NCBI GenBank assembly: GCA_964362175.1
Contig: CAYIDD010000002.1
Span: 45,939 to 109,938, forward strand
Direction of reading: 5' to 3'
DNA from: an uncultured Candidatus Saccharibacteria bacterium
GTDB lineage: Bacteria; Patescibacteriota; Minisyncoccia; Phycocordibacterales; UBA2100
DNA length: 64,000 bases
Shown: one piece after another, positions 5,713 through 57,550 of the stretch
How positions within the stretch are numbered: the first letter of the stretch is position 1
Layout: every line of letters starts with the position of its first letter
Made by a program: the position numbers and the translations under genes
Notes under the pieces: model-generated
What the model saw: only the letters and a program-made list of their open reading frames with translations
Told to the model about the DNA's origin: nothing
The model's database searches: none

Positions 5713-5871
5713 GCAAGAAAAAACCCGCGATCTGCGGGCAATCGGGAGAGATAAAAAAATACACCCATGCGGGTGTTCTCTGCGAGAAACTTTCCGGAGG
5801 TCATTAAAACTGAAGTGTAGCAAATTCATTGTCGCTGTCAAGCTTGGGGTGTTTTTGTGTATACTCCCCCC

Positions 5872-7095
5872 ATGACACGTAACGAACTGCAAAAATCCAA
5901 GCTTCCCGACAAGCCCGGAGTGTATATATTCCGCGGGAAGGGAAGAAAGATACTCTACATCGGAAAGGCGACATCGCTCCGAGATCGCCTGCGAAGTTAT
6001 TTTTCGTCCAATATTGCCTCTATCCGCAGCAGCGCGATCGCAAAAATGGTGGAAGAGGCTCGCTCGATCTCGTACAAAACCACAAAGTCGGTGCTCGAAG
6101 CGCTCATTCTTGAGGCGAACCTCATAAAGCAGCATCAGCCGCCGTACAATCTCGATGAGAAAGACAACAAAAGTTGGAATTACGTAGTCATAACGAAAGA
6201 GAACTTTCCCCGAATATTGCTTGTGCGCGGACGAGAACTGTATCAGAAATGGGATCTGAAGGATGTCGCACGTACATTTGGACCTTTTCCACACGGCAAA
6301 CAATTGCAGGAGGCAGTGAAAATCGTTCGGAAAATATTTCCGTTCCGCGACAAATGTACACCCTGTGGAGGTCCCGACGTGGTATGCAAGCCGTGCTTCA
6401 ACCGGCAGATAGGGCTGTGCCCTGGTGTGTGTTACGGCGAAGTATCGAAAGAAGAATATGCGCGCACCGTTCGGAACATCCATCAATTATTTTCCGGGAA
6501 CTTTAAGGGGCTCAAACGGCAACTTGCGCGTGACATGAAAGCAGCGGCGGAGGGGGAGCGCTTCGAGGCGGCATCCAGACTGCGCCAGCAAATTTCGGCG
6601 CTCGAACATATCCGCGACGTATCGCTGATAAAAAATGGATTGCCATCGAGCGGCGGAGGCACTCGCATTGAGGCCCTCGATGTGGCGCACACCGGAGGGT
6701 CTGAGACCGTTGCGGTGATGGTCGTTGTCAGCAACGGAGAGGCGGTAAAGAATGCATACAGAAAATTTAAGATACGTACCGCGGCAAATGACGATATTGC
6801 GGCGCTCAAGGAGGCACTAACTCGTCGCCTCACTCATCCGGAATGGCCTCTACCGCGGGTGTTCGTCGTTGATGGGGGCGTGGCCCAAATGAGAGCTGCA
6901 GCGTTGGTTTCCAAGGAAGCCGGGGTTGCTATTCCTATCGTGGGGGTCGTAAAGAATGAGTTCCACAAGCCGGAACGCCTCATCGGGGACGCGCGGGCCA
7001 TCGAGGCGTATGAAAAGGATATTCTGTTCGCGAACAGCGAAGCCCACAGGTTCGCTCTTCAGTGGCACCGCACGCGCCGTGACAAGATATACTGA
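5872..7095 (+). CDS. uvrC: Excinuclease ABC subunit C, short form lacking the C-terminal HhH domain
   Basis: GIY-YIG motif ([18 protein letters not shown]), the UvrBC-interaction region and the RNase H-like endonuclease domain are present. It is only about 407 aa from the ATG at 5872; the track start at 5857 is a GTG overlapping the -10 box. Confidence 0.85.
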
Positions 7096-7100
7096 GTACC

Positions 7101-7535
7101 ATGTATTGGACCTATGTACAAATACTCACGTTTCTCTCTATCCTCGCGGTTATATTTGGCGGGGGATATGTAGCATATCGAAACGCGACAACGCCGGAAA
7201 CAATGGATCTGTATGCTGCCGCAGACCTTGATCTTTCCCGGTTTCCCCCCACCGTCTGCAGGACCTCATGGAGTTCATTTGAGGCAGCCGGAAGCGCGGT
7301 TGCGTATATTGTGGAAGGTAAATTTCGTATGGATGTGCAAATGGTCGCGGGAAAAGATACGGCCGTCTACCATATCGTAAAGCTCCCCGGCAAAGCTATA
7401 GAGGCTTCGGGCAAGCGAAATAACGTTGAGAATATTGATCCCGCAGATATTGTATTACCGGAAGCGGAATTACGTACCGTTGCACAATGTGATCCGTGGT
7501 GGTTCCCCAACCGGTCTTTTTTCAACGTCTTGTGA
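7101..7535 (+). CDS. Hypothetical membrane-anchored protein
   Basis: 144 aa with an N-terminal TM helix (ILTFLSILAVIFGGGYVAY) and no recognisable domain. It has its own TATACT -10 box 7 nt upstream. Confidence 0.5.
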   Translation: MYWTYVQILTFLSILAVIFGGGYVAYRNATTPETMDLYAAADLDLSRFPPTVCRTSWSSFEAAGSAVAYIVEGKFRMDVQMVAGKDTAVYHIVKLPGKAIEASGKRNNVENIDPADIVLPEAELRTVAQCDPWWFPNRSFFNVL

Positions 7536-7578
7536 TCCGCATGATATTGGTACGGAAGTGTGATGGTACAATATCGGA

Positions 7579-8547
7579 ATGACACGGATGTCGGTCGGAA
7601 TTTTGCGCGGTGGAACATCAAGTGAATACAATCTGTCGCTGAGATCGGGTGCCGCGATCCTCAGTGCACTTCCCGATGATCGATACGATACGCGCGATAT
7701 TTTTGTAGACAGGCGTGGATACTGGCATTTACGGGGCACACCGATGGACGCCGCACGCGCGCTTTCCCAAGTTGATGTCGTGCTCAATGCACTGCACGGG
7801 GGGCCTGGTGAGGATGGTACGGTGCAGCGCATTCTCGAACGCGCCGGCATCCCGTATGCGGGTTCGCGCGCCTCCGCCTCCGCGCTCGCGCTCAATAAAA
7901 TTCGCGCGCGAAATGTTCTTGAAAAAGCCGGCATACGAATGCCGCGCGCTTCGTCGTTCACCATGCAAGACGATCTTACTACCGGACAGATGGCGCAGCT
8001 CGTGTTTGCCCGATTCGGCCCGCCCTACGTTGTGAAGCCCCCCAGCGAGGGGGCGGCAACCGGAGTTCGCATTGCGGGGACATTGTTGGACCTGCCCGAT
8101 CTTCTGGGAGACGTGCTCGATGCATACGGCGCGGCCCTGGTGGAAGAGTATGTGCGCGGACAGGAGGCGAGTGTCGGTGTCATCGAAAATTTCCGTGGGG
8201 AAGATCTCTACGCGTTGCCTCCGGCGCATGTCGTCCTTCCGGAGGGGTTCCACTTCATGGAACTGCGGCACCACGAAGAGGGAATGTTGCGGCACATGGT
8301 GCCAAGCAGTTTTCATCATGACGAAAAACAGGCTCTTTCAAATATGGCGCGTGCTGCTCACAGGGCACTCGGCTTGTCGCATTTCTCGCGCGCGGATATC
8401 ATCCTGACGTCCCGCGGCCCGTATCTCTTGGAAGCGAATGCGATTCCCGGTCTCTACAGGGGAGCATCTTTTCCGGCGATGCTCGAATCCGTGGGTTCCT
8501 CCGTACGCGAATTTCTCGAGCACGCGATACATTTGGCTCGGAAATAA
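7579..8547 (+). CDS. ddl: D-alanine--D-alanine ligase
   Basis: 322 aa. N-terminus MSVGILRGGTSSEY, HGGPGEDGTVQ motif and an ATP-grasp C-terminal domain. Confidence 0.9.
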   Translation: MTRMSVGILRGGTSSEYNLSLRSGAAILSALPDDRYDTRDIFVDRRGYWHLRGTPMDAARALSQVDVVLNALHGGPGEDGTVQRILERAGIPYAGSRASASALALNKIRARNVLEKAGIRMPRASSFTMQDDLTTGQMAQLVFARFGPPYVVKPPSEGAATGVRIAGTLLDLPDLLGDVLDAYGAALVEEYVRGQEASVGVIENFRGEDLYALPPAHVVLPEGFHFMELRHHEEGMLRHMVPSSFHHDEKQALSNMARAAHRALGLSHFSRADIILTSRGPYLLEANAIPGLYRGASFPAMLESVGSSVREFLEHAIHLARK

Positions 8548-9524: not shown

Positions 9525-9658
9525 GGTTACTCCTCACCTGTTGCCGCTGTGCATTTTTTGAGCGCTATGAACTGACCGAATACTGTTCTAATCAAAAGCA
9601 TTGTCAATACCTTCCGCTTTGCGAATATGGTGAAGTCTGGTAGTTTAAAGCTTCGACT

Positions 9659-9733
9659 GGGCCAGTAGTTCAGTGGTAGAATGCCTCATTTGCAATGAGG
9701 AGGTCCGGGGTTCGATCCCCCGCTGGTCCACCA
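9659..9733 (+). tRNA. tRNA-Ala (anticodon UGC), CCA encoded
   Basis: Cloverleaf: acceptor GGGCCAG/CTGGTCC with the G3:U70 alanine identity pair. Anticodon stem CCTCA/TGAGG with loop TTTGCAA gives anticodon TGC. T-arm CGGGG-TTCGATC-CCCCG. Confidence 0.9.
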
Positions 9734-11991
9734 TGCATATCGTTGTTCCTATAAAAAACCTTCACGAACACATCGCTACGTTAGCACGGACCACGCCAAA
9801 AAAGATCGCGCTTGTCGCGACGGACGAACGGGGGACTACCACCGAGAAGATCACGTATGCCGACTTGCTCGAAAAGGTAGAAGCGGCGGCGGCGGAGTTG
9901 AGAGATCTCGGTTTGCAAAAGGGGGATCGTATCGCGCTCGCATTCCGTAATTCGCCCGCACTTCTTATATGGAGCTGGGCCGCATGGGCGATGGGCATAG
10001 TGACGGTGCCCATGGACACAAAGCGGGACACTCCGGAACTCTACGCGTATAAGATCAATCTCAATAAAGCGAAGGTGTTGATCCTTGAGCGGGGGATACA
10101 GGTAGATAAACTACCTGGCGTTCGTGTCAAAGTACATCTGGAATTCCCTTCCGAAGGAGGGTCCGCCTCTGGCGGAAAAGGTGCACCGGTTGCATGGGAG
10201 AAGGGGCTCTCGCATCAATCGCTCGTTCTCTTTACCTCCGGCACGACCGGCCATCCGAAGGGGGCGATGCTCTCCCTCGAGAATCTCATCGTCAATGCGA
10301 GCGGTATCTGTGAATGGTTACGGTTCACCGAGAATGATGTATTTCTCGTAAATCTGCCCCTGCACCACATCAACTCCACCACGTTCTGCCTCTCGACGCT
10401 CCTTGCGGGCGGTACGATCGCCATACCGCCGCAGTATTCGAATTCGCATTTTTGGGAGCAGAGCGGCAAAACGGGCGCTACCGTTACGTCTGTGGTGCAA
10501 TCGATCGTATTTGATCAGCTGAAGCGCGAAAAGGAGTTCGCGGCCGGGAAAAAACATGTAAAACTGAATAAAATACAAATAGGCTCTGCTCCGGTACTCG
10601 CACAGTCGGTGCAGGAATTCCAGAAGAAATTTGGCATCCGTCTCTATCAAGGCTACGGACAAACGGAGACGGCGCTTCGGGTGACCGGCGTTCCAATGGA
10701 CATTTCGGAGGAGCTCCACGAAAGACTTGTGGAGGAAAATTCCATCGGGACACCTATGCAATGGGCCGATCTGCAGGTATCGGACGATGAGGGAAAGCTA
10801 CTCGACGAGGGAGAGGAGGGGGAACTCATCGTCAAAGGTCCCGCGATCATGGAAGGGTACCTCGGACGCGAACCGGCGTTCCGCAACGACTACTTCCTTA
10901 CGGGGGACATCGGCTACTACCGTGTTATCGAGGGCCGGAAATATTTTTATCTCAAAGGCCGCAAACGGGAAATCATCATCAAGGGTGGTATCAACGTCTC
11001 GCCAGTCGCTGTCGAAAATGCTCTCAAGAAAATATCAGGAGATATAGATCAGGTACACGTTGTCCCCGTGCCTGATGAACGATATGGCGAGGAGGCTGGC
11101 GCCGTCATCTCATGGAAAACCGGTATAGATGAAATGCGCGCGAAACGGTACCTCAAGAGCACACTACTCCTCGGTACGCGATACCTCAGTGCATACGAGA
11201 CGCCCAAGTACATAACATCACTTTCAATAAGCGAGCTTCCGATGACCTCCACCGGAAAAGTGCAACGCGGCGTTCTGAAAGGCACCATTCCGTATGAAAA
11301 ATTCGAGTCAATATTCGGTCTCCTCAAGACACCTAAGTACCGCTTTACTGTGTTGCACCGCTATTCACGATGGACGGAGCCCTCATATGAACTACACAAA
11401 CGTTGCTGGGGGGATATTGCCGGCACGAGGGAGGAGTATGAAAAGAATATCCCCAAACAGCTCATTATCCTTGCGGCAAGGCCGGACGACACGATCGTCG
11501 GACAGATCGCCGTCGTTCGTACGAGCCTCCCGGAAAAGGAGCTTCTTCAAAAAAAATATGATGAATTGATCCCAGAAGCATCTGATCGTGAGGGAAATGC
11601 GCTTGTATGCGTTTCCATTTGCAACGCTGAATACACGCCAAGACCCATTCCTTCGGTGAATTTAATCCCGAAACCCGATGAGGTCCGCGCATATCTTTTA
11701 GGCGGGAACGACCCCGTCATGCGATTCCACGAAAAGCCGAAAGGAGGTCTTGCCGAGGGTGCAAAGCTTGTCGACGTCATTGAGAGTGGCCGGCCCAAAG
11801 ACAAAAGCTCGCTCGGATACAACATGCTTCTCAAATATCCGGAACCGAAAAATATTGTCATCCATACGCACGCACCCGTCCCCAACCAGCTCATTGAGAT
11901 GGTGCTTCTTCTTGCGGGCGATCTCGGTATCAAAAATGTGTACGCCTACTCGCGTCCTGGCGGCTTGGCGTCGTATGTATCCACAGGTTGA
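9733..11991 (+). CDS. AMP-forming acyl-CoA synthetase/ligase fused to an extra C-terminal domain of about 220 aa with no recognised family
   Basis: Motifs TSGTTGHPKG, YGQTE, GEL..KG.....GY and C-terminal TGKVQR of adenylate-forming enzymes end near residue 530. A further ~220 residues follow. The ATG at 9733 shares its A with the tRNA CCA; the track start at 9673 is a GTG inside the tRNA. Confidence 0.8.
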   Translation: MHIVVPIKNLHEHIATLARTTPKKIALVATDERGTTTEKITYADLLEKVEAAAAELRDLGLQKGDRIALAFRNSPALLIWSWAAWAMGIVTVPMDTKRDTPELYAYKINLNKAKVLILERGIQVDKLPGVRVKVHLEFPSEGGSASGGKGAPVAWEKGLSHQSLVLFTSGTTGHPKGAMLSLENLIVNASGICEWLRFTENDVFLVNLPLHHINSTTFCLSTLLAGGTIAIPPQYSNSHFWEQSGKTGATVTSVVQSIVFDQLKREKEFAAGKKHVKLNKIQIGSAPVLAQSVQEFQKKFGIRLYQGYGQTETALRVTGVPMDISEELHERLVEENSIGTPMQWADLQVSDDEGKLLDEGEEGELIVKGPAIMEGYLGREPAFRNDYFLTGDIGYYRVIEGRKYFYLKGRKREIIIKGGINVSPVAVENALKKISGDIDQVHVVPVPDERYGEEAGAVISWKTGIDEMRAKRYLKSTLLLGTRYLSAYETPKYITSLSISELPMTSTGKVQRGVLKGTIPYEKFESIFGLLKTPKYRFTVLHRYSRWTEPSYELHKRCWGDIAGTREEYEKNIPKQLIILAARPDDTIVGQIAVVRTSLPEKELLQKKYDELIPEASDREGNALVCVSICNAEYTPRPIPSVNLIPKPDEVRAYLLGGNDPVMRFHEKPKGGLAEGAKLVDVIESGRPKDKSSLGYNMLLKYPEPKNIVIHTHAPVPNQLIEMVLLLAGDLGIKNVYAYSRPGGLASYVSTG
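10156..10181 (+). repeat. Palindromic mini-element copy 1, in-frame in acs (encodes EGGSASGGKG)
   Basis: GGAGGG-TCCGCC-tct-GGCGGA-AAAGG. It matches 24 of 26 nt of the nspC copy. Confidence 0.7.
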
Positions 11992-13005: not shown

Positions 13006-14217
13006 ATGGTGGCATCCGGTATGCGAGCTCAATTCGTGCGTGAACCAAGTCTGGCGAACCCGCTCCGTTCTGTTCGTGCACTCGAGCTCCACCGTTTCCT
13101 CTTGCGCGCGGCGCTGGCGGGGGTGAACATATTCGCATGGATGTTCGTCTTTCAGTATTTCTACCTCGTCGAAGCGGACATCGCGCACGCACTTGCGCGC
13201 ACCGCGCTCCTGTACGCGCTCTCACAGACCATCACATGCCTCGTCACTCCGTATGCCGCGCGGCGTCTTCGCGCGGGCGCGCGCAGCGCACTGATCCTGG
13301 GAACGCTCCTCGCGGCGGTCGCGTTCTTAACACTGAGGACGATGTTTGATGGATTCTGGCTTTCCGCATTCGCCACTGATGCGGTGCTAGGCTTCGCGCT
13401 CGCGATCGGACTGTACCGCGCGTTGTATTGGGTCCCGTATTCGGTCGAAGCCGCGGCGCATTTTCAAAAAAAACCATTGCTCATCGCGGAATTCCTGATC
13501 GCGTGCGCCCCTCTCGTCGGCGGCCTCTTCATCGCGGGGATCGGTATGGGGTTTGTGTGGATCCTGTACATCGGCGCTGCAATCATCGCGCTTTCTGCAA
13601 TTCCGGCATTTTTCATCCGCAATGTCCACGAAATATTTTCGTGGGGGTATCGCGAAACATTTTTACAGCTATTTGAATTTGAGAATCGGAGGATCGTGAC
13701 GGGGGGATTTTTGGAAGGCATTTCCGGTGCGGCAACGCTCCTCTTTTGGCCGCTTGCGGTATTTTTGATCGTTGATCAGTCATTCGGCATGCTCGGTATC
13801 ATCCTCACGCTCACGTTCTGGGTAGCGATATGGATGCGGAGGTTCATTCGCAGGATGCTGCGACGTCTCCGTCTTACCGGATCGTCAGCCGCGAATATCG
13901 TTTTTGCAATTACGCCGTGGCTGTTCCGTCTCGCCGTCGCCACCCCCCTCGGCATTATTTTTGTCGACTCATTTTTCTACACAACGACGCCGCGGCGCAT
14001 GGGGATCGATCCGCTTGCTTTTGAACAGGTTGCCGATGGAGGATCATACGTCGACGAGTTCACGGCCCTAAAGGAAGTTGCTCAAGCGCTTGGCAGGATC
14101 TCACTCTGTATTTTGGGGGCAACCGCCGTGCTTCTGGTTTCGGTTCCGACCGCGCTCGCGATGGTATTTTTTATCACGGCGCTTTCCGCAGCTGCGGGGG
14201 CGTATCGGTCGCGTTAG
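13006..14217 (+). CDS. Polytopic membrane protein, possibly an MFS-type transporter
   Basis: 403 aa with about 10-12 predicted TM helices and no diagnostic motif seen. Confidence 0.5.
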   Translation: MVASGMRAQFVREPSLANPLRSVRALELHRFLLRAALAGVNIFAWMFVFQYFYLVEADIAHALARTALLYALSQTITCLVTPYAARRLRAGARSALILGTLLAAVAFLTLRTMFDGFWLSAFATDAVLGFALAIGLYRALYWVPYSVEAAAHFQKKPLLIAEFLIACAPLVGGLFIAGIGMGFVWILYIGAAIIALSAIPAFFIRNVHEIFSWGYRETFLQLFEFENRRIVTGGFLEGISGAATLLFWPLAVFLIVDQSFGMLGIILTLTFWVAIWMRRFIRRMLRRLRLTGSSAANIVFAITPWLFRLAVATPLGIIFVDSFFYTTTPRRMGIDPLAFEQVADGGSYVDEFTALKEVAQALGRISLCILGATAVLLVSVPTALAMVFFITALSAAAGAYRSR

Positions 14218-14232
14218 TTACAAAACAAAAAA

Positions 14233-14268
14233 CCGCGTAAGGGGACGTACATAACATCCCTTACGCGG
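14233..14268 (-). terminator. Rho-independent terminator for the minus-strand 131-aa gene (bidirectional context)
   Basis: CCGCGTAAGGG ... CCCTTACGCGG 11-bp stem overlapping the stop codon. On the minus strand it is followed by TTTTTTGTTTTG. Confidence 0.65.
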
Positions 14269-14656
14269 CTCCAACATTCCCACGCGGTGGCCTCGCTTGT
14301 TTCGGCAGGTCAGAAAAGAGCATGGGTTGTTTCGTCTTCTTCCACGCCTTCTCAAAACGTTCGATCAGCTTGGCGAGTTTTCTTTTCCGTTCGGCAAGTT
14401 TGCGCTTACTGCGATAGGCTCTCGTTTTAGCCGCCTTCTTCGCCCACTTTGAACGGATTGCCAGTTCGACACGCCCGGTTGCCTTTTCGATCTCAAGGGG
14501 TGTCGGAGCATCATTCGGAACGTAATACTCGATGCGCAGATATGCCCGGATAGCATCCTTCAGGCCTCGTTTGTGCTTGAATGCCTCAGCGGTCTTTGCT
14601 TCCTTCCATTGGTAACTTCGGAAGAAAGCTACTACCAGCTCGTCATCTGGCTGCAT
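14261..14656 (-). CDS. Hypothetical basic protein (131 aa), second gene of an SD-bearing two-gene module
   Basis: ATG preceded by GGAGG at 7 nt. K/R-rich C-terminal helix (KTRAYRSKRKLAERKRKLAKLIERFEKAWKK). Followed by a terminator. Confidence 0.5.
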   Translation of the reverse strand: MQPDDELVVAFFRSYQWKEAKTAEAFKHKRGLKDAIRAYLRIEYYVPNDAPTPLEIEKATGRVELAIRSKWAKKAAKTRAYRSKRKLAERKRKLAKLIERFEKAWKKTKQPMLFSDLPKQARPPRGNVGAA

Positions 14657-14861
14657 GGCGCGGCCTCCGTGGCTCTGCGTTGTACCCGCGCATCTTCGTG
14701 CGGATTTGCCGCATGATGCGCTTGAGGTCGGGGCGATATGTCACGCCAGTACCACGAGCCACTTCGGCCGTGACATTGAAGAAACGCAATCGAGAACGGT
14801 CACTCGACGCAAACCACTTCTCCGCCGCCCTAGCGGTCAAAAGCTCAATGTTTGCTTTCAT
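14643..14861 (-). CDS. Hypothetical small protein (72 aa), first gene of the module
   Basis: ATG preceded by AGGGAG at 6 nt and a sigma70-like promoter TTGTGT-N17-TAGAAT (plus-strand coordinates about 14894-14922). Overlaps the next ORF by 14 nt. Confidence 0.45.
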   Translation of the reverse strand: MKANIELLTARAAEKWFASSDRSRLRFFNVTAEVARGTGVTYRPDLKRIMRQIRTKMRGYNAEPRRPRHAAR

Positions 14862-14933
14862 GTTCGGCTCCCTGTGCCGACTGCAGGAACGCGATTCTAC
14901 TGCATGGGACTATCCCACACAACGACTAACATT

Positions 14934-15389
14934 TCAAGATTTTAAAATATTTTGCACGACCTCCTTCACATCACTTCCATCCGCACCACCCGCAAACTCT
15001 TTCATCACGACACCCATGAGTTTGCCTGCGCCCGAAGCATCGGTGACGCCGAGCTCTGCCATTTTGGCACGCGCGACTTTTTCTATTTCGTCGTGTCCCG
15101 CCGTCCGCGGTAAATACTCCTCGATAACTTTCAGTTCGTTCGACTCTTTCTCCGCGAGTTCGGGTCTTCCACCTGCGGCAAATTGTTCGGCCGAATCTTT
15201 CCGCTGTTTTGCAAGCCGTTTCAATACCACCACCGCCTCGGCATCGGACATTTCTTCGGTCGGTTTCCTACCCTTGGCAACGAGTTCGTTGGTAAACGCT
15301 GAAAGCGCCCCGCGCAGAGTATCGCGCTTGAGGCCATCTTTTGCCTTCATCGCGGCAGTCATGTCGGCGCGGATTTTTTGGGTCAGCAT
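14934..15389 (-). CDS. yqeY: GatB/YqeY-domain protein
   Basis: The C-terminal 151 aa of the long minus-strand track ORF matches the YqeY domain (MLTQKIRADMTAAMKAKD...GKLMGVVMKEFAGGADG). ATG at 15389. The upstream part of the track ORF is non-coding. Confidence 0.75.
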   Translation of the reverse strand: MLTQKIRADMTAAMKAKDGLKRDTLRGALSAFTNELVAKGRKPTEEMSDAEAVVVLKRLAKQRKDSAEQFAAGGRPELAEKESNELKVIEEYLPRTAGHDEIEKVARAKMAELGVTDASGAGKLMGVVMKEFAGGADGSDVKEVVQNILKS

Positions 15390-15446
15390 GGCGGGATTAT
15401 AACCCAGTAGGCGATCGTACTCAATCGCATGTGCTAGAATCGCGAC

Positions 15447-16523
15447 ATGGAATCGCTCGTTGTTGGCCTCCTTGTGTTGATCGTGGCCCTTCTTGCATAT
15501 CTGCTTTGGTTCCGCAGAACGCCGCAGGAGACGCAAGGCATGGTCTTGCTTCAGCAGCGCATACAGGAGTTGGAGCGAAGTTTGGAAAGCAAACTTGGGG
15601 AGGGCACTAACCGCATGTTCGAATCCATGCGCGCACAATTTGGCGAGTCGCAGCGACTTGCGGGCGATATCAGGGATCTGGTCGCCAAACAGCTCACCGA
15701 GGTGCGTATCGAACAAACCAAAACAAATGAGTCGACGACGCGCTTCATGTCTATCGCCGAACAGCTCGCGAATTTGGAGAAAGTGCTCAAGCATCAAAAA
15801 CAGAGAGGAAATCTCGGCGAAGCATCGCTCGAGCTCATTCTCGGCAATATTTTGCCCCCCGGTTCGTACAAGATGCAATACGAATTTCCGGGAGGGGAGA
15901 CGGTAGACGCCGTTATTGAAACAAAAGAAGGTGTCATTCCGATAGATGCGAAATTCTCGCTCGATAATTATCAGCGACTGGTAAACGCGATAGATGATAC
16001 ACAACGCGCGGAGTTGGAAAAACAATTCAAGAATGACCTCAAGCTTCGCATAGACGAGACCTCAAAATACGTGCGGCCCAAGGACGGCACCTTGCCCTTT
16101 GCCTTCATGTACATCCCAGCCGAGGCTATTTATTACGATCTCCTCATCAATGAGGTGGGTTCGGTCAAGGTGAATACGCGCAATCTCATCGATTACGCGT
16201 ACAACGAAAAGAAGGTCATCATCGTCTCGCCCACGACCTTCGCAGCCTATCTGCAGTCCGTTCTTTACGGCTTTAAGGCGTTCAAGATCGAGGAGACGGC
16301 CAAGGATATAGCGAAAAACGTGGAAGCACTCGGTCGGCACCTGAATGCATATCAGGATTACTACAAAAAACTCGGTGCGTCTCTATCCACAACAGTGAAC
16401 CATTTCAACGCCGGCTCGAAGGAACTCGGCAAGATTGACAAAGATGTTCTCCGTATAACAGGGGAGTCGGCCGAGCTCGAAACACCACTTTTAGAGAAGC
16501 CAACCCTTGCAGGGGAAGGGTAA
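15447..16523 (+). CDS. rmuC: DNA recombination protein RmuC
   Basis: 358 aa with an N-terminal TM segment, coiled-coil and a conserved RmuC C-terminal region (FAFMYIPAEAIYYDLL). Confidence 0.8.
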   Translation: MESLVVGLLVLIVALLAYLLWFRRTPQETQGMVLLQQRIQELERSLESKLGEGTNRMFESMRAQFGESQRLAGDIRDLVAKQLTEVRIEQTKTNESTTRFMSIAEQLANLEKVLKHQKQRGNLGEASLELILGNILPPGSYKMQYEFPGGETVDAVIETKEGVIPIDAKFSLDNYQRLVNAIDDTQRAELEKQFKNDLKLRIDETSKYVRPKDGTLPFAFMYIPAEAIYYDLLINEVGSVKVNTRNLIDYAYNEKKVIIVSPTTFAAYLQSVLYGFKAFKIEETAKDIAKNVEALGRHLNAYQDYYKKLGASLSTTVNHFNAGSKELGKIDKDVLRITGESAELETPLLEKPTLAGEG

Positions 16524-47606: not shown

Positions 47607-49406
47607 ATGGTGAATGGAAGATCTCGGATGCTGTACGCTGCACTACTTGTTGCCGTTGCAATATCCGTGGGAGGGATTTTTCTGCGGTCTTTTGTTTTTC
47701 AGAGTTACGCGATCGATGTCAATGAATCGGTCATCAGTCATGGGGAAAGTTCGCGCCAGCTCATCGCAAACGATGCGCTGGCGTGCGAGTGGGCACCTGA
47801 TCCTTTTTTAATATTTTCTGCCAACGTATTTTCACCCCTGATTTACTATTCCCACCTGTTCCCCGCTTTAGCGAGCGTCCTGCTCGGATTCTTTATTTGG
47901 CGACAACGGAAAAAATCGCTTTTGAATGGGTTATTCGTATTTCTCGTCAGTATATTCGCCGCGTGGTCGCTGTATGATCTCGTCCTGTGGGCTACGGCAA
48001 ATCCCGACGTGACCATTTTTGTATGGTCAGTGCAGATATTTCTCGATGTCGGCGTGTATATGAGTGCCGGGTACCTCTGCTATGTATTCTTCTATGAACG
48101 AGATCTGTCGTTCACGATGAAGGTTATTGCCGTCGCGGCGCTCATTCCCGTCATCTTTCTTGCTCCAACTGCACTTAATCTTGCTTCTTTCGATTACACT
48201 ACCTGCGACCGTGAGGCGACCGAAGGAGGATTGTGGCACTACGTCTATCTGTTCGAGATTCTCATCGTGCTTTGGGTGGCTGCGCACGCCGTCCGCGCCT
48301 TCCGCGCCGCAACAACTCCAGAGCGCAAAAAGCAGATACTTTCATTCGCCCCCGCAATCATTCTGTTCCTCGTCGCCTTCTCGTGGGGCAACATCGTAGG
48401 CAGTCTTACCTCGGATTGGTCCATCCCCCAATACGGACTTTTTGGGATGCCTATCTTCCTTGCCGTAACGCTGTACCTCATCGTCAAATATCAAACCTTC
48501 CAAGTACAGACGATCGCCGCCTCAGCACTCGTGAGCGGCCTCTGGACACTTCTATTCTCCATACTTTTCCTAGCGGACATGGAGACTGCGCGCCCGGTCA
48601 TTGTGATAACGCTGGTATTCTTCGCGATGATGGGGTTGCTCTTGGTGCGGAGTGTGCGTCGCGAGATTGCACAACGCCACTTGATCGAGAAGCAGGAGAA
48701 AGAGCTGGAGATCGTGAACAAGCAGCAGGAAAATCTACTCCACTTCATGAGCCACGAGGTCAAGGGGTACCTAACCGAAGGGCAGGCGGGGTTTGCTTCG
48801 ATAGTCGAAGGGGATTATGGCGCAGTGCCGGATTCTCTCAAGACGATGGCGACGAACGCGCTCGTGAAAGTACGAAAGGGTGTGGCGACTATCATGGACA
48901 TCCTGAAAGCATCCGATATGAAAAAGGGTACGGTGGCGTACAAAAAAGACTCCTTTAACTTTAGGAAAGCGGTGGAAACCATCGCGGGTGAACAAAAGGC
49001 GGCTGCATTGGAAAAAGGTCTTGGATTTGAGGTGAACATCGCGGAAGGGAAGTACGTAATGACGGGGGATGCGGAGAAGGTGCGCGACCACGTCATCCGC
49101 AATCTTATGGACAATGCTGTCCGCTACTCTCCGACCGGTACGATCCATGTCGAGCTTTCCGACGGAGGAGGGAAGATACGCTTTTCAGTAAAAGACAACG
49201 GGGTCGGTATCACAGAGGAAGACATGCAACATCTCTTTACTGAGGGCGGTCATGGAAAGGACTCGATAAAGGTCAACGTCCATTCGACTGGCTACGGCCT
49301 CTTTATCGCGAAACAGGTCGTCGACGCCCACGGCGGCAAAATTTGGGCGGAATCAGAGGGGGAAGGCAAGGGTGCCACGTTCATTGCAGAATTTCACGCC
49401 ATATAG
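47607..49406 (+). CDS. Sensor histidine kinase with an N-terminal polytopic membrane sensor domain. No cognate response regulator is present in the window
   Basis: About 8 TM helices. HisKA H-box FMSHEVKG. HATPase_c N, G1 and G2 boxes (DNGVGI, GYGLFIAKQVVDAHGG). Confidence 0.8.
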   Translation: MVNGRSRMLYAALLVAVAISVGGIFLRSFVFQSYAIDVNESVISHGESSRQLIANDALACEWAPDPFLIFSANVFSPLIYYSHLFPALASVLLGFFIWRQRKKSLLNGLFVFLVSIFAAWSLYDLVLWATANPDVTIFVWSVQIFLDVGVYMSAGYLCYVFFYERDLSFTMKVIAVAALIPVIFLAPTALNLASFDYTTCDREATEGGLWHYVYLFEILIVLWVAAHAVRAFRAATTPERKKQILSFAPAIILFLVAFSWGNIVGSLTSDWSIPQYGLFGMPIFLAVTLYLIVKYQTFQVQTIAASALVSGLWTLLFSILFLADMETARPVIVITLVFFAMMGLLLVRSVRREIAQRHLIEKQEKELEIVNKQQENLLHFMSHEVKGYLTEGQAGFASIVEGDYGAVPDSLKTMATNALVKVRKGVATIMDILKASDMKKGTVAYKKDSFNFRKAVETIAGEQKAAALEKGLGFEVNIAEGKYVMTGDAEKVRDHVIRNLMDNAVRYSPTGTIHVELSDGGGKIRFSVKDNGVGITEEDMQHLFTEGGHGKDSIKVNVHSTGYGLFIAKQVVDAHGGKIWAESEGEGKGATFIAEFHAI

Positions 49407-49438
49407 AATAAGTGTTTTTTCTGCTATTATTTGCCAAT

Positions 49439-50380
49439 ATGCAGAAAAAACGCCTCTTCACTGGCCTTCAGCCCTCCGGCCCCCTCCACATTGGCAACTA
49501 TTTGGGGGCGCTCAAACAAACGGTTGAAATACTCAAAGATTCTGATGGGCTCGTGATGATAGCCGACTACCACGCCCTGACGACACTTCGTGCACCGGAA
49601 GAGCTGCGAAAGAATATATTGGGAGTAGCGCGGGATTACATTGCGGTCGGGCTTGATCCAAAAAAGATCGCTATTTTCAAACAATCGGACGTACCGGAAC
49701 ACACGGAGCTTGCGTGGATATTCGATTGCCTCGTAACCGTCCCATTTTTACAGCAAGCGCACGCGTACAAAGACAAAGTTGCAAAAGGTCTTGACGCGAA
49801 TGCGGGACTTTTCACATACCCGATGCTTATGGCAGCCGACATCCTGCTCTACGATACCGATGTGGTGCCTGTCGGTGCCGACCAGCGACAGCACGTGGAA
49901 TACGCGCGTGAAGCTGCTGCAAAGTTCAATACGGCGTTCGGGGAGACATTCAAAGAACCACAGGAGCGGATACTGGAGGCTGTTGCAGTCGTGCCGGGCA
50001 CCGACGGAAAGAAAATGAGCAAGAGTTACGGCAATACAATACCACTTTTCGGAACGCGGGAAGAGATACAAAAGGCGGTGATGGGCATCGTCACGGACTC
50101 AAATGCGGAGAGCCCCGAAAATGTATACAACATCCACAAATTCTTCCGCTCCGGCGACGAGCTCGTAACGCTCTACAAAGAGAACAAGGGAAAATACAAA
50201 GCCCTCAAGGAAGCGCTTATCGAGGACATTGAGGCAGTGGTGGGCCCGATGCGGGAAAGGCGTGCAAATATCTCCGATTCCGATGTGAAGGCAATACTCA
50301 AAGACGGAGGGGAAAGAGCCCGCGCTCAAGCGGCAGTAAAAATGGCCGATGTACGGGCAAAAGTAGGAGTCACGCTTTAA
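49439..50380 (+). CDS. trpS: Tryptophan--tRNA ligase
   Basis: Class I motifs: PSGPLHIGNYLGAL (HIGH-like) and KMSKS. 313 aa from the ATG at 49439. Confidence 0.9.
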   Translation: MQKKRLFTGLQPSGPLHIGNYLGALKQTVEILKDSDGLVMIADYHALTTLRAPEELRKNILGVARDYIAVGLDPKKIAIFKQSDVPEHTELAWIFDCLVTVPFLQQAHAYKDKVAKGLDANAGLFTYPMLMAADILLYDTDVVPVGADQRQHVEYAREAAAKFNTAFGETFKEPQERILEAVAVVPGTDGKKMSKSYGNTIPLFGTREEIQKAVMGIVTDSNAESPENVYNIHKFFRSGDELVTLYKENKGKYKALKEALIEDIEAVVGPMRERRANISDSDVKAILKDGGERARAQAAVKMADVRAKVGVTL

Positions 50381-54083: not shown

Positions 54084-54116
54084 ACTGATAACTATACCCG
54101 TAGTACAATACCCACC

Positions 54117-55181
54117 ATGCTCCCACCTCTCGTCCTTGTCCTAGTGCCCGCAGCAATTGCCTTTTTGGTCGGTATTATTGCGACCCCGATCCTCACCCAC
54201 TACCTGTACGCGTACAAAGCATGGAAAAAACGCCCCGGCAAACAAGCCTTCGACGGCAATGTGGCACACGAATTTAATCGTCTCCACGCTGAAAACGAAG
54301 TGCGCGCACCGCGCATGGGTGGCATCGTGGTGTGGGGTTCGGTCGTGATCACCACCCTTGGGATCTCCGGCATCGCGTATCTTTTTCCATCTCCCTCCAT
54401 CTTCCAACTTGATTTTCTGAGCAGAAGCCAGACGTGGTTGCCGCTCGCGACACTGATCGTCGGAGCATGTGTGGGACTCCTTGACGACATGATGGTCATA
54501 CGCCCGAACGGCGAGGGGTTGCGCTTGAGACATCGCCTCCTGATCGTAATAACCCTCTCCTCCTTCATCGGATGGTGGTTCTGGGAGAAGCTCGACGTGA
54601 CCGCCGTCAACATCCCTTTCTCCTCTCCGTTCGAATTGGGATGGTTCATTATTCCGTTTTTCGTCTTCGTCTCGCTTGCACTCTACGCGTCTGGAGTCAT
54701 CGACGGCATCGACGGTCTTTCGGGCGGCGTGTTCGCTTCGATCTTTGCCTCATACACCATCATTGCGTTCGCTCAGGGACAGACGGACCTTGCGGCGTTC
54801 ACCGCGTGTATTCTCGGCGGCCTCCTCGCGTTCCTGTGGTTCAACGTGCCGCCTGCGCGGTTCTACATGAGCGACACCGGCACAATGGGGCTCACGCTTG
54901 CGCTTGGCACTATCGCGTTCATGACCGATGACCTCGGCGGGGGATTCGGTATCGCCGTGCTGCCCGTCATCGGAGCGCTTCTCGTCGCAACCGTGCTTTC
55001 GGATGTTGCGCAGCTGTTCTCAAAAAAGTTCTTCGGAAAAAAACTGCTCCGTATAGCGCCACTCCACCATCACTTCGAGGCGATCGGATGGCCCGGACAT
55101 AAGGTCGTGATGCGCTATTGGATACTCTCCATCGTATTTGCCTTCGCGGGAGTCATTGTCGCGCTTTCCGCGCTCTCTTGA
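54117..55181 (+). CDS. mraY: Phospho-N-acetylmuramoyl-pentapeptide transferase
   Basis: DDMMVIR and IDGIDGLSGG motifs, 10 TM. Confidence 0.9.
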   Translation: MLPPLVLVLVPAAIAFLVGIIATPILTHYLYAYKAWKKRPGKQAFDGNVAHEFNRLHAENEVRAPRMGGIVVWGSVVITTLGISGIAYLFPSPSIFQLDFLSRSQTWLPLATLIVGACVGLLDDMMVIRPNGEGLRLRHRLLIVITLSSFIGWWFWEKLDVTAVNIPFSSPFELGWFIIPFFVFVSLALYASGVIDGIDGLSGGVFASIFASYTIIAFAQGQTDLAAFTACILGGLLAFLWFNVPPARFYMSDTGTMGLTLALGTIAFMTDDLGGGFGIAVLPVIGALLVATVLSDVAQLFSKKFFGKKLLRIAPLHHHFEAIGWPGHKVVMRYWILSIVFAFAGVIVALSALS

Positions 55182-55206
55182 ATTCGTGAGTGGTACTATT
55201 CAGTTC

Positions 55207-56310
55207 ATGCGAGGTCGTTTGGATAAAACACTGCTTTTTCTGCTCATCGCCCTGATCGTCGGGGGATGCTTTATCTTTGCTTCGGCGGCATTTGGGTTGC
55301 TTGCGCGCGGACAAAGTGGCATGACCTCAATCGTTTTGAACCACCTCGTACTCGGCGTGGGCCTCGGCCTTGTCCTGCTCGTCATGCTCTCCGTGTTTGA
55401 CTACCGCCATTGGCGCATCGTCGCGCCGTACCTGTTCGGCCTTTCCCTTTTCGCAACGGCGCTCGTGTTCGTGCCACAGATCGGTTTTACACACGGGGGC
55501 GGAACCCGCTGGCTCGATATTTTCGGACTCTCGGTGCAGCCTTCGGAAGCACTCAAAATAACCTCCGTGATCCTCGCGGCAGCATATTTTTCCGCTGTCC
55601 GGGGCCGCGCGGAATCTCTCACGCGGGGCTTGGGCGGCTTTTTTGCCATTATCGCACCTTCTGCTCTTCTGCTTCTTCTTCAACCTGACATTGGAACACT
55701 CTTTATCATCTGCATTCCGGTCTTTGCGGTGTATGTGGCCGCAGGCGCGCGATGGCGCGACATCGCGATCGCGGCGATCGTAGCGCTCATATGCCTCTCG
55801 GCCATCCTGTATTTCAAAGATCATGCGCGCCAGCGTCTGATGACCTTTCTCGACCCCTCGCGGAACCAGCAGGCTTCCGGCTATCAGATACGACAATCGC
55901 TGATCGCCATCGGCTCCGGCGAATTTTTGGGGCGCGGCTTCGGGCAGGGCGTGCAGAAATTTACATACCTGCCGGAACCGATGGGGGATTCTATATTCGC
56001 TGTAGCGGCCGAAGAATTGGGGTTTGTGGGCTCCGTCACAATCGTTCTTACCTTTCTTGGGTTCGTATTGCGGGGGTACGGCATCGCCGCTCGCGCCCCT
56101 GACTTTTTCGCCGGCCTTCTCGCGGTTGGGATTTCCACCTACCTCGTAAGCGAGGCATTCATCAATATCGCTGCCATGCTCGGGGTCGCGCCCCTCACGG
56201 GCATCCCGCTTACGTTCGTCTCGCAAGGCGGCACTGCCATGCTCGTATCTCTCGCGAGTGCCGGTATTTTGCTCAATATCTCCCGTCATCGTCGGGCGTC
56301 AAACGCATAA
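55207..56310 (+). CDS. ftsW: SEDS-family peptidoglycan glycosyltransferase FtsW/RodA
   Basis: Polytopic SEDS topology with conserved C-terminal PLTGIPLTFVSQGGTAML. Confidence 0.8.
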   Translation: MRGRLDKTLLFLLIALIVGGCFIFASAAFGLLARGQSGMTSIVLNHLVLGVGLGLVLLVMLSVFDYRHWRIVAPYLFGLSLFATALVFVPQIGFTHGGGTRWLDIFGLSVQPSEALKITSVILAAAYFSAVRGRAESLTRGLGGFFAIIAPSALLLLLQPDIGTLFIICIPVFAVYVAAGARWRDIAIAAIVALICLSAILYFKDHARQRLMTFLDPSRNQQASGYQIRQSLIAIGSGEFLGRGFGQGVQKFTYLPEPMGDSIFAVAAEELGFVGSVTIVLTFLGFVLRGYGIAARAPDFFAGLLAVGISTYLVSEAFINIAAMLGVAPLTGIPLTFVSQGGTAMLVSLASAGILLNISRHRRASNA

Positions 56311-56407
56311 GATACGCAAAGGAAGAGCCGTCACCGACGTTTGGATCCCCTGGGGGAAGCCGCTAGAATGACAGTGGTTGGCCTCCCGCATATGATAAAA
56401 TACCCCG

Positions 56408-57550
56408 ATGCGCATCGTGCTCATCGGAGGGGGGAGTGGGGGGCATTTTTACCCCCTCATTGCCGTCGCGGAGGCGATTGAGGACATATGCCTCGAGCGC
56501 ACACTCCTTGAACCCGAACTCTACTATATCGGTCCGCCGGCATTCGATGCAGAAGCGCTTCTGGAGCACGACATTGTATATATCCCCGGCAGTGTGGGCA
56601 AAATGCGCCGGTACCCAAGCGTTCTGAACGTCTTAAGCGTTTTTTCCAACGCGATCGGCATCATCCGCTCCACACTGCAACTCTTCCGTCTGTACCCTGA
56701 CGCGATCTTCTCGACCGGCGGTTATGCCTCATTTCCCACCCTCTACGCGGCGCGTATCTTGCGTATTCCCGTCATTATCTACGACGCCGATGCCGTGCCG
56801 GGAAGGGTCTCTCTGTGGTCTTCCACATTTGCGCGCTATATCGGACTCGCTCATCCGGACGCAGCGGAAAAATTTCCTAAAAAAGTACACGGCAAAATAG
56901 CACGTATTGGACATCCCATACGAAAAGAGATCATCGCCCCGACCAAAGAGGGCGGACACGAATTCCTCCATCTCAATCCCTCCATCCCCACCATTTTTAT
57001 AATGGGCGGTTCCCAAGGCGCACGCGCCATCAACGAGGTCGTGCTCGATGCATTGCCGGAACTCGTATCGGAATTTAACGTTGTTCATCAGGCGGGGACG
57101 GCAAACCTGAAGGAAACGAGTGATATTTCTTCAGTAATCCTCAAAAACTCCCGCTTTGCGGAGCACTACAAAATATTCGGCCTCCTCAACACGCTTGCGC
57201 TGCGCATGGCGGCGGGCATCAGTTCACTCGTCGTGGCGCGCGCAGGTTCGGGCACCATATTTGAAATAGCAAGTTGGGGCCTGCCCTCGATCCTCATCCC
57301 CATCCCAAAGGATGTATCGCACGATCAGATAGAGAACGCCTTTTCGTATGCCCGTTCCGGAGCATCAGCTGTCGTGGAGCAACAAAATCTCACTCCCCAC
57401 CTCCTCGTATCGGAGATACGACGCGTTATGGGCGACGAGGCACTACGCTCAAAAATGGCCGGCGCTGCTCGCGCATTTGCGCGTCCCGATGCTGCCCGAA
57501 AGATCGCAACCATGCTTCTCGAAATCTCCATAGCGCATGAGCCCGTATAA
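56408..57550 (+). CDS. murG: UDP-N-acetylglucosamine--N-acetylmuramyl-(pentapeptide) pyrophosphoryl-undecaprenol N-acetylglucosamine transferase
   Basis: MRIVLIGGGSGGHFYPLIAVAEA; GT-B fold. Confidence 0.9.
   Translation: MRIVLIGGGSGGHFYPLIAVAEAIEDICLERTLLEPELYYIGPPAFDAEALLEHDIVYIPGSVGKMRRYPSVLNVLSVFSNAIGIIRSTLQLFRLYPDAIFSTGGYASFPTLYAARILRIPVIIYDADAVPGRVSLWSSTFARYIGLAHPDAAEKFPKKVHGKIARIGHPIRKEIIAPTKEGGHEFLHLNPSIPTIFIMGGSQGARAINEVVLDALPELVSEFNVVHQAGTANLKETSDISSVILKNSRFAEHYKIFGLLNTLALRMAAGISSLVVARAGSGTIFEIASWGLPSILIPIPKDVSHDQIENAFSYARSGASAVVEQQNLTPHLLVSEIRRVMGDEALRSKMAGAARAFARPDAARKIATMLLEISIAHEPV

Follow-up and report, generated by a model that had tools for sequence, protein, structure and literature searches.

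In bacteria, leaderless transcription is conventionally recognised by a Pribnow box positioned 6-8 nt from the gene start (PMC6028130). Among the GeneMarkS-2 categories, 'group C' comprises Actinobacteria such as Mycobacterium tuberculosis, Deinococcus-Thermus such as Deinococcus deserti, and some Mycoplasma, in which 25-50% of transcription units have a -10 box at a distance of 6-8 nt from the start codon while operon-internal genes have none (PMC6028130; bioRxiv 10.1101/2022.07.25.500264). As for Parcubacteria, Tsurumaki et al. (2022, RNA 28:1041) report CCTCCT in only 48% of the 16S genes, and infer that Shine-Dalgarno (SD) helices do not form (PMC9297842). In E. coli, a U at position -1 can extend the pairing with the initiator tRNA to a quadruplet that includes A37 (Hollerer and Jeschek 2023, PMC10018350).

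Here we describe a window (the whole stretch analysed, 64,000 nucleotides) from a groundwater CPR/Patescibacteria genome, close to Candidatus Kaiserbacteria, in which many transcripts probably have the start codon at their very 5' end. Our literature search found the leaderless mechanism in other phyla, and no report of it for the Kaiserbacteria-like CPR group.

Hexamers upstream of start codons

An earlier note on this DNA listed 14 start codons with upstream -10 boxes of the form TANNNT. All 14 codons and hexamers were located, and 13 of them fit the motif with a 6-9 nt spacer; the exception was the Sigma70_r4/HARE-HTH gene starting at ATG 19961 (19944..19963), whose TATACA, followed by 8 nt, is a 5/6 near-match. 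(Features are on the plus strand unless marked.) TATACT precedes the uvrC ATG 5872 by 6 nt (5860..5874), and precedes ATG 7101 of a gene for a 144-aa hypothetical protein by 7 nt (7088..7103), where box and uvrC stop codon share bases and the intergenic gap is 5 nt. A 6-nt spacer was also found at ddl (TGgTACAAT, ATG 7579; 7567..7581), rmuC (TGcTAGAAT, ATG 15447; 15435..15449), a 475-aa hypothetical (TGgTAGAAT, ATG 21056; 21044..21058) and murG (TGaTAAAAT, ATG 56408; 56396..56410), and a 7-nt spacer at a 132-aa ORF (TACAAT, ATG 24660; 24647..24662; a more 5' ATG, at 24651, lies partly within the box), the nspC-like decarboxylase gene (TGgTAATAT, ATG 28203; 28190..28205) and dnaJ (TATAAT, ATG 44600; 44587..44602). 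The spacer is 8 nt at grpE (TGcTATACT, ATG 42010; 41996..42012) and trpS (TGcTATTAT, ATG 49439; 49425..49441), and 9 nt at a 215-aa membrane protein gene (TGgTATAGT, ATG 46431; 46416..46433). The rplU (L21) start at ATG 16545 can be read with either TATAGT and 9 nt or TAGTGT and 7 nt (16530..16547).

Thirteen further TANNNT sites bring the box-bearing genes to 26 of the 66 curated genes. Those with 6-nt spacers are a yqeY-like gene (TATAAT, ATG 15389; 15387..15401, minus strand), whose promoter stands back to back with that of rmuC in a shared spacer of 57 nt, dnaB (TGaTAGGAT, ATG 19743; 19741..19755, minus strand), mnmA (TATTCT, ATG 23561; 23549..23563), a PD-(D/E)XK nuclease gene (TGgTATACT, ATG 26533; 26521..26535), a 388-aa hypothetical (TATACT, ATG 35196; 35184..35198), a 162-aa hypothetical (TAAGAT, ATG 45713; 45701..45715), a 599-aa HATPase_c protein gene (TATACT, ATG 47607; 47595..47609) and an RNase T-like exonuclease gene (TATACT, ATG 61896; 61894..61908, minus strand). 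The spacer is 7 nt at alaS (TACGTT, a weak box, ATG 33212; 33199..33214), mraY (TACAAT, ATG 54117; 54104..54119) and ftsW (TGgTACTAT, ATG 55207; 55194..55209), and 8 nt at a 450-aa hypothetical (TGgTATACT, ATG 36384; 36370..36386). mgtC (TGaTAGAAT, 7 nt, ATG 26006; 25993..26008) is counted as a possible case only, as its start was picked with the box already in view. Thus, about 40% of the genes in the window have a -10 box 6-9 bases 5' of the ATG, and so do about half of those not tightly coupled to an upstream gene (26/51). Since approximately 4% of matches are expected by chance, a few single assignments may be false, with alaS, the 162-aa hypothetical and mgtC as candidates.

The start assignments agree with Pfam N-terminal alignments: the GIY-YIG domain begins at residue 15 of UvrC, position 2 of the respective profile falls on residue 4 in both YqeY and L21, and position 1 falls on residue 3 in MnmA and MurG and on residue 5 in AlaS. 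Public gene calls pick the same ATGs on the same sequence. The earlier note also held that some GTG or TTG starts in the ORF track lie on the box, and such starts on or beside it were confirmed at uvrC (GTG 5857, just 5' of the box), grpE (GTG 41992), mnmA (GTG 23546, likewise just 5' of the box) and dnaB (GTG 19749). Among start codons following the box, enrichment was seen for ATG only, and none was found for GTG, TTG or CTG.

When starts were assigned blind to the motif, as the first in-frame ATG of each ORF selected by codon usage, 22 of 56 carried TANNNT at 6-9 nt, against 83 of all 2095 ATGs in the window (4.0%; binomial P = 8e-17). The spacing peak is sharp, with 21% at 6 nt and 12.5% at 7 nt and approximately 0-2% at spacings of 2-5 and 10 nt, and the control motif ATNNNT gave no such peak in the window. 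Of 48 TGNTANNNT sites, 14 have, 6-9 nt downstream, an ATG that begins an ORF of 80 codons or more, where 0.8 would be expected (P = 3e-14). The total number of TGNTANNNT sites in the window is not raised (48 versus 58 +/- 8 in dinucleotide shuffles), so that what is non-random is their placement rather than their number. The possibility raised in the earlier note that TANNNT occurs near starts at the level of base composition was rejected, as the enrichment over all ATGs is about tenfold.

Promoter-like character and conservation of the box

Both in the window and among 477 pooled sites, the hexamer consensus is TATAAT/TATACT with an upstream extended -10 TGn. At positions -3 and -2 of the box, T occurs in 15 and G in 14 of 22 window sites; TG is present in 30% of the pooled sites, compared with 4.9% of control TANNNT sites. 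The -35 signal is weak: the pooled sites have a faint TTG at -23..-21, matching a 17-nt spacer, and dnaJ orthologues often have TTTGCA-17-TATAAT. The peak spacing of 6-7 nt is the one usually seen between a -10 box and the transcription start. Of the genes overlapping or abutting an upstream gene, 0 of 14 carry the box, as opposed to 26 of the 51 others (P = 4e-4). In these respects, and in being followed only by ATG, the box behaves like a sigma-70 extended -10 promoter element.

The best 80 DnaJ relatives all belong to CPR MAGs, mostly of Kaiserbacteria/Paceibacterota. Box-to-ATG distances gave the same peak in the 80 related loci (1156 genes), with 13.2% at 6 nt, 6-7% at each of 7-9 nt and about 2-3% elsewhere. 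The box is kept at 6-9 nt in 51 of 76 dnaJ orthologues, and is likewise retained in those of trpS (35/40), the 388-aa hypothetical at 35196 (12/12), grpE (6/10) and mraY (10/17). Orthologues of genes in the ribosomal-protein operon have it in 7-20% (7-12% for infA, rpmJ, rpsK, rplQ, rplM and rpsI). Judging from these comparisons, the predicted leaderless arrangement belongs to the Kaiserbacteria-like Paceibacteria (CPR/Patescibacteria) as a lineage and is not a local oddity.

Starts without the box

The absence of SD sites at the 14 listed genes was confirmed, as GGAG, GAGG and AGGA are missing from the 22 nt before each ATG. Over the window, SD-like 5-mers are not above chance (2/59 versus a 1.4% background, P = 0.2) and 4-mers are below background. 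SD 4-mers precede 4.4% of genes against a background of 5.2%, with no positional peak, and enrichment of SD motifs was found nowhere in the clade. The earlier note regarded the module at 14261-14861 and the ORF at 12071 as exceptions bearing SD sites, and found the contrast informative. Neither part of this view is supported: 40 of the 66 genes have no adjacent box and nearly all of these have no SD either, and because SD-like motifs are no commoner than chance in the window, a contrast between box and SD cannot be demonstrated. The two-gene module itself (14215..14900, minus strand) has GGGAG 5' of ATG 14861 and GGAGG 7 nt 5' of ATG 14656; a TAGAAT promoter lies some 33 nt on its upstream side, and it is followed by a terminator hairpin. 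Its proteins gave no matches in Pfam or PHROG.

What marks the box-less genes is T at -1 (63% versus 21% background) together with an upstream stretch rich in A; among internal genes U(-1) dominates, with 63-91%. Among box-bearing genes, T(-1) rises with spacing from 36% at 6 nt and 39% at 7 nt to 53% at 8 nt and 63% at 9 nt; its weakness at 6-7 nt and return at 8-9 nt is expected if position -1 is untranscribed in the 6-7 nt class. As a contrast case, the operon infA-rpmJ-rpsM-rpsK-rpsD-rpoA-rplQ-rplM-rpsI (37740..41836) has a leadered promoter, TTGACG-17-TGcTATATT, 16 nt 5' of the infA ATG at 37785, and none of its internal genes has a -10 box next to the start or an SD site, most of them carrying T at -1. 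At 9638..9735, a promoter-like TGgTAGTTT box is followed by tRNA-Ala(TGC) (9659-9733), whose 3' end directly adjoins the ATG of an AMP-binding ligase gene at 9733.

Predicted initiation mode and comparison with known systems

The core of the earlier note, namely that -10 boxes would make transcription begin on the start codon or only a few nt from it and yield leaderless mRNAs, is supported by all sequence-level tests run, comprising motif identity, spacing, ATG exclusivity, dependence on operon position, clade-wide and gene-specific conservation, the T(-1) gradient and SD non-enrichment. We consider the leaderless reading of the box-bearing genes well supported, and give the explanation set out here as a whole a probability of roughly 0.8. 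The TANNNT boxes would be -10 elements of housekeeping sigma-70-type promoters, of which most fall into the extended -10 class (TGnTAnnnT) and have a -35 element that is slight or missing; many sit within the final codons of the gene before them. Because the box ends 6-7 nt, or sometimes 8-9 nt, before the ATG, the first base that the polymerase transcribes would be the A of the ATG or a base 1-3 nt before it. The resulting mRNA would be leaderless or nearly so, and its 5'-terminal AUG may be recognised directly, with translation proceeding independently of SD pairing. The remaining genes, operon-internal or leadered, appear to use the A-rich upstream stretch and U at -1, which plausibly forms a fourth base pair, with A37 of the initiator tRNA, as well as translational coupling. 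Where transcription starts, how ribosomes are recruited and whether the 16S anti-SD is intact are inferences here.

Many boxes lie 5-70 nt downstream of a same-strand gene and intrinsic terminators are at chance level (26 versus 23.6 expected), so that read-through transcripts carrying box-associated ATGs internally probably coexist with leaderless ones. The same observations would suit promoters that are real but mainly internal or secondary, most protein being made from read-through polycistronic mRNAs on which these ATGs are used by an SD-independent mechanism, with leaderless transcripts a minor product. This organism must be able to initiate internally without SD, since operon-internal genes are evidently translated from starts with neither SD nor box. 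Nevertheless, selection keeps the box-to-ATG distance at exactly 6-9 nt in diverged orthologues, which is hard to explain unless a transcript with a 5'-terminal AUG matters, and the relaxed T(-1) at spacings of 6-7 nt suggests that those ATGs are less tied to an internal-initiation context. We regard this explanation as unlikely.

Still less probable is that the AT-rich box acts in the mRNA, as a non-SD ribosome-binding signal of leadered transcripts like the GeneMarkS-2 'group B' motif of Bacteroidota, and not as a promoter, albeit the clade does not use SD sites and A/T-rich sequence generally lies upstream of its start codons. Such a signal should also occur at operon-internal genes, where no box was found, and in ribosomal-protein orthologues, where boxes are few; moreover, the fixed T-A...T pattern with upstream TGn is typical of sigma-70 contacts, the spacing fits a -10-to-start distance, and a -35-like TTGCA lies 17 nt upstream in some dnaJ orthologues. 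An origin in chance, mis-called starts, base composition or the stop codons of preceding genes is rejected and has a negligible probability. TANNNT is indeed loose, with 966 copies in the window, and the total TGNTANNNT count is unremarkable, but the enrichment sits at one sharp spacing, the control motif is peakless, the pattern recurs in 80 other genomes and is conserved gene by gene, and the starts are confirmed by alignments and independent gene calls.

Like extended -10 (TGnTATAAT) sigma-70 promoters, the leaderless candidates in the window combine TG at -15/-14 from the start with a hexamer resembling TATAAT and a -35 that is weak or not required; unlike such promoters generally, their boxes are systematically placed so that the predicted start site is the ATG. 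Mycobacterial leaderless genes also use GTG, whereas only ATG follows the box in the window. The window and its relatives share with group C the -10 box signature before the ATG, albeit this lineage (CPR/Patescibacteria, mid-GC, with a very small genome) is outside the taxa listed for that group (PMC6028130; bioRxiv 10.1101/2022.07.25.500264). Parcubacteria devoid of the 16S anti-SD motif belong to the same broad lineage and fit the missing SD enrichment in the window, and the part of the Tsurumaki et al. account drawn on here does not state an alternative initiation mode (PMC9297842). The A-rich upstream regions resemble those of Bacteroidota and Cyanobacteria in group B, where initiation is SD-independent. 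A favourable U directly 5' of AUG is shared with E. coli, where it has only a small modulating effect (PMC10018350), whereas it dominates at internal genes of the window and its relatives. Leadered and internal genes of group C are reported to have SD-type ribosome-binding sites, and those of the window and its relatives show the T(-1) and A-rich context in place of SD enrichment. The arrangement in the window thus appears to be of the group C type, although its leadered genes, unusually, are without SD sites as well.

Hexamers at gene starts

We found the sequences that an earlier note had given for the upstream regions of 14 genes precisely where it had placed them, before the starts of uvrC (5872), a hypothetical gene (7101), ddl (7579), rmuC (15447), rplU (16545), a helix-turn-helix (HTH) gene (19961), two genes at 21056 and 24660, nspC (28203), grpE (42010), dnaJ (44600), a gene at 46431, trpS (49439) and murG (56408). 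Thirteen of these indeed carry a TANNNT -10 hexamer with 6–9 nt between hexamer and ATG (henceforth, the box), the HTH gene bearing only a near-match (TATACA, 8 nt). The starts were also free of Shine-Dalgarno (SD) sequences as claimed, since SD-like 4-mers were seen in none of the 14 within the last 22 nt. Where Pfam allows a judgement, the gene names are right (UvrC, Ddl, RmuC, L21, GrpE, TrpRS and MurG), and Pfam further agrees on an Orn/DAP-type decarboxylase (nspC-like) and a Sigma70_r4/HARE-HTH protein (19961). The latter fusion (19961-20983) is unusual for CPR, as are a 450-aa protein with weak similarity to Baseplate_J/phrog_6 (baseplate wedge; 36384-37736) and a SET-domain protein, the gene for which has a 4-nt overlap with the membrane gene upstream of it (47075-47554).

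The positions of the ATG starts are directly backed by Pfam N-terminal alignments for L21, MnmA, MurG, RNase T, TrpRS, YqeY and AlaRS, and public gene calls on an identical contig agree on the ATG start of all genes from 35196 through ftsW. GTG or TTG starts of the ORF track lie on or beside the box in uvrC, grpE, mnmA and dnaB, as had been suspected. We used two sets of starts, namely (i) starts chosen blind to the motif, i.e., the first in-frame ATG of ORFs picked by codon usage (n = 56), and (ii) curated starts, set from Pfam alignments of the N terminus together with the first in-frame ATG (n = 66 genes). An ORF at 4783-5319, which is a shadow ORF in the place of carA, was left out of the curated set.

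The box precedes 22 of the 56 blind starts, as against 83 of 2095 ATGs in the window (4.0%; P = 8e-17), bearing out the spacing proposed in the earlier note. The profile is sharp, with 21% at 6 nt and 12.5% at 7 nt but about 0–2% at 2–5 and 10 nt, and the control motif ATNNNT gave no peak in the window. Seen from the side of the motif, 14 of the 48 TGNTANNNT sites lead to an ATG at 6–9 nt that opens at least 80 codons (0.8 expected; P = 3e-14), and 10 of the 26 TATA[AC]T sites likewise precede an ATG-initiated ORF. The total of TGNTANNNT in the window is not raised (48 vs 58 ± 8 in shuffled sequences); the non-random feature of this motif is its placement, not its abundance. The curated set has the box in 26 of 66 genes, 13 of which had not been listed before. 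A few individual boxes may be due to chance, for instance the weak ones of alaS and of a hypothetical gene at 45713, and that of mgtC, the start of which was picked in knowledge of the box. As a possible source of the TA signal we considered the stop codons of the preceding genes. We rejected this explanation, because in two close-packed genes that we inspected, mnmA and the hypothetical gene at 7101, the TA of the box lies outside the upstream stop codon, and because neither the extended TG nor the consensus within the hexamer (see below) can derive from stops.

The hexamers aligned from 22 window sites read T-A-t-a-(a/c)-T, and the extended -10 positions (TGn) hold T in 15 and G in 14 of the 22. 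Among 477 sites pooled from loci of intermediate GC content, TG is found in 30%, vs 4.9% of control TANNNT sites, and a faint T-T-(T/G) appears at -23 to -21, the -35 position for a 17-nt spacer. In the extended -10 class of promoters, a TTGACA-like -35 element with a 16–18-nt spacer is optional; dnaJ orthologues often have plain TTTGCA-17-TATAAT. A generic two-hexamer promoter scan returned 18 sites (10.6 ± 2.7 expected), but it requires the -35 element and misses extended -10 promoters. Of the start codons, ATG alone is enriched behind the box (GTG, TTG and CTG are flat), which fits the known need of leaderless initiation for a 5'-terminal AUG. Genes that overlap the upstream gene or lie no more than 4 nt from it carry the box in 0 of 14 cases, the remaining genes in 26 of 51 (P = 4e-4). 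On sequence grounds, the box has the properties of a promoter element, not those of a ribosome-binding site.

The spacing signal held beyond the window as well. The best 80 DnaJ relatives among GTDB species representatives (top match 84% identical) all belong to CPR/Patescibacteria MAGs, the majority bearing the label Candidatus Kaiserbacteria or Paceibacterota. The same DnaJ is also encoded by a contig from Hainich groundwater (ENA ERZ1292629). In 1156 genes of the 80 loci (L001-L080; GC content 35–62%), TANNNT peaks with 13.2% at 6 nt and 6–7% at each of 7–9 nt, compared with about 2–3% at other spacings, and ~30% of genes are boxed. The arrangement is kept gene by gene while the surrounding sequence diverges. 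Orthologues have the box at 6–9 nt in 12 of 12 cases for a 388-aa hypothetical protein (gene at 35196), 35/40 for trpS, 51/76 for dnaJ, 17/30 for the hypothetical gene at 45713, 10/17 for mraY and 6/10 for grpE. The share is low, 7–12%, for infA, rpmJ, rpsK, rplQ, rplM and rpsI, and ~20% for rpsM, rpsD and rpoA.

Starts without the box

SD 4-mers at a spacing of 4–10 nt were not enriched (4.4% of genes vs 5.2% of all ATGs), and only the SD 5-mers GGAGG/AGGAG were in marginal excess (2.6% vs 1.5%). The clade makes essentially no use of SD sequences. The earlier note had singled out a few SD-bearing genes as the exceptions to a leaderless rule. The SD-like sites themselves are real, i.e., GGAGG 7 nt before the ATG at 14656, GGGAG before the ATG at 14861 and AAGGAG before a 51-codon ORF at 12071, as is GAGGAG before pfkB at 9524, but their count is at chance level among 59–66 genes. 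Nor are these genes "the" exceptions, as 40 of the 66 genes lack the box.

The SD-like cases (the module holding the ATGs at 14656 and 14861, pfkB and the 12071 ORF) all fall at 8.6–14.9 kb, beside tRNA-Ala. The module (14215-14900, minus strand) comprises two genes for basic proteins of 72 aa and 131 aa, neither of which has a Pfam or PHROG match. A leadered TAGAAT promoter of its own serves the module, and a clean terminator hairpin follows it. A foreign origin of the cluster, or a horizontally acquired island, is possible; Pfam and PHROGs searches of the SD-bearing module and other hypothetical proteins gave no matches pointing to foreign or phage origin. The same region holds 489 nt without a convincing gene (11992-12480), upstream of a gene whose product is an RNA-binding protein with an RRM domain and a tail rich in Gly and Arg (12481-12828). 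The 489 nt could represent a regulatory RNA or a long 5' UTR; none of the Rfam families attained its gathering score in them.

A different context marks the non-leaderless starts, which we surveyed in the window and in L001-L080. In unboxed genes, A makes up 36–43% across -10 to -5, T(-1) 63% (21% in the background) and G(-1) 7% (32% in the background). Examples of T(-1) in the window are the starts at 38611, 39060, 39728, 41082, 41441, 42666, 50385 and 57554, and the share rises to 70–91% in orthologues of ribosomal-protein operons. Among boxed genes, T(-1) climbs from 36–39% at spacings of 6–7 nt to 53% at 8 nt and 63% at 9 nt. Such a gradient is expected if transcription starts ~7 nt past the box, since position -1 would lie outside the mRNA at spacings of 6–7 nt and inside it at 8–9 nt. 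In E. coli, U(-1) is favourable through its pairing with initiator-tRNA A37 (PMC10018350). T(-1) and the A-rich stretch may constitute a clade-specific, SD-independent start context, possibly involving U(-1):A37 pairing, and U(-1) would be the dominant signal in this clade.

Gene arrangement and a possible two-mode system of initiation

Promoters frequently lie within the final codons of the preceding gene, the intergenic gaps being 5–70 nt. Intrinsic-terminator-like hairpins are not enriched in 35001-55000 (26 vs 23.6 ± 4.8 in shuffled sequence). Hairpins at chance level together with embedded promoters imply extensive read-through or a different mode of termination; leaderless and read-through transcripts thus probably coexist. 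Among divergent pairs, yqeY (minus strand) and rmuC (plus strand) lie 57 nt apart with leaderless-type promoters back to back (15387-15449). Only the plus-strand gene has a box in the pairs M16 peptidase(-)/alaS(+) (52 nt apart; 33157-33214) and GNAT(-)/nspC(+) (89 nt apart; 28111-28205).

At 9638-9735, the end of tRNA-Ala(TGC) directly meets the first ATG of an AMP-binding ligase gene (...CTGGTCC-A-CC-ATG), so that, if CCA is taken as encoded, its A76 would double as the first base of the ATG. This suggests that tRNA 3' processing may create a near-leaderless 5' end of the ligase mRNA. The arrangement is reminiscent of mitochondrial tRNA punctuation. In one relative (L081, 5925-6003; ligase orthologue 76% identical), ATTT separates the tRNA from the ATG, and in another (L086, 2147-2290), with a divergent tRNA, the ligase gene instead has TGGTATACT plus 8 nt before the ATG. 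A perfect extended -10 match, TGGTAGAAT, lies inside the D-arm of tRNA-Ala at 9674-9682 and is almost certainly no promoter.

From sequence, we infer the following account as a whole. For about half of the transcription units, extended -10 promoters abutting the ATG would yield mRNAs that are leaderless or have a 1–3-nt leader, with translation beginning at the 5'-terminal AUG. In operon-internal and leadered genes, initiation would proceed without SD, by means of U(-1)AUG, coupling and an unstructured, A-rich context. Kaiserbacteria-like Paceibacteria (CPR) may have abandoned SD pairing altogether in favour of two modes, leaderless in about half of the transcription units and U(-1)AUG-initiator tRNA with an A-rich tract elsewhere, with 5' ends occasionally provided by tRNA 3' processing. 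We tentatively put the probability of this reading at roughly 0.35. If it is true, two-mode initiation would be an architecture of gene expression not described before in a major bacterial radiation, and would explain in functional terms why the anti-SD and some ribosomal components are reported as lost.

Comparison with known systems

CPR/Patescibacteria, which have reduced ribosomes, make up a very large and mostly uncultured share of bacterial diversity, and to our knowledge translation start is essentially undescribed in them. A literature search of limited coverage found nothing linking leaderless transcription to CPR. The conserved leaderless signature and the lack of SD use suggest a simple, possibly ancestral-type mode of initiation. 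In practical terms, gene finders expecting SD can choose a GTG or TTG on or before the box (as in the ORF track for uvrC, grpE and mnmA), and expression constructs for the clade should carry TGnTATAAT 6–7 nt before the ATG instead of an added ribosome-binding site.

Leaderless transcription is already well known in Actinobacteria and Deinococcus-Thermus. Among the genome types of GeneMarkS-2, group C (leaderless) is defined by a Pribnow box 6–8 nt from gene starts in 25–50% of operons (PMC6028130), and has been reported for Actinobacteria, Deinococcus-Thermus and some Mycoplasma (PMC6028130; bioRxiv 10.1101/2022.07.25.500264). The present clade resembles group C in (i) a Pribnow-type motif localised near starts, with peak spacings of 6–7 nt in the window and a peak in the 80 related loci, (ii) a share comparable to 25–50% of units (26/66 genes, 26/51 uncoupled genes, ~30% in related loci), and (iii) operon-internal genes without the box (0/14 coupled genes; 7–20% in orthologues of ribosomal-protein operons). 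Unlike group C, in which the other genes are reported to use SD-type ribosome-binding sites, SD 4-mers are not enriched here (4.4% vs 5.2%). The motif itself is like sigma-70 extended -10 promoters, with TGn directly before a TATAAT-like hexamer. In group B (non-SD ribosome-binding site, Bacteroidota-like), the same motif precedes all genes, whereas TANNNT is missing from operon-internal genes here; there is nevertheless a partial likeness, as a different general context (A-rich -10 to -5, T(-1)) precedes the internal genes.

Among the 16S genes of Parcubacteria, Tsurumaki et al. 2022 found the anti-SD motif in no more than 48% (PMC9297842). No rRNA was found in the window, and no 16S signature in the 88 loci searched. 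In their upstream regions, the genes described here are without SD use, like the anti-SD-less Parcubacteria of that study, and the leaderless/SD-less signature ties in with the anti-SD loss it describes (PMC9297842). Set against these known systems, the advance is a taxonomic extension and an SD-less variant of leaderless expression, not a new mechanism.
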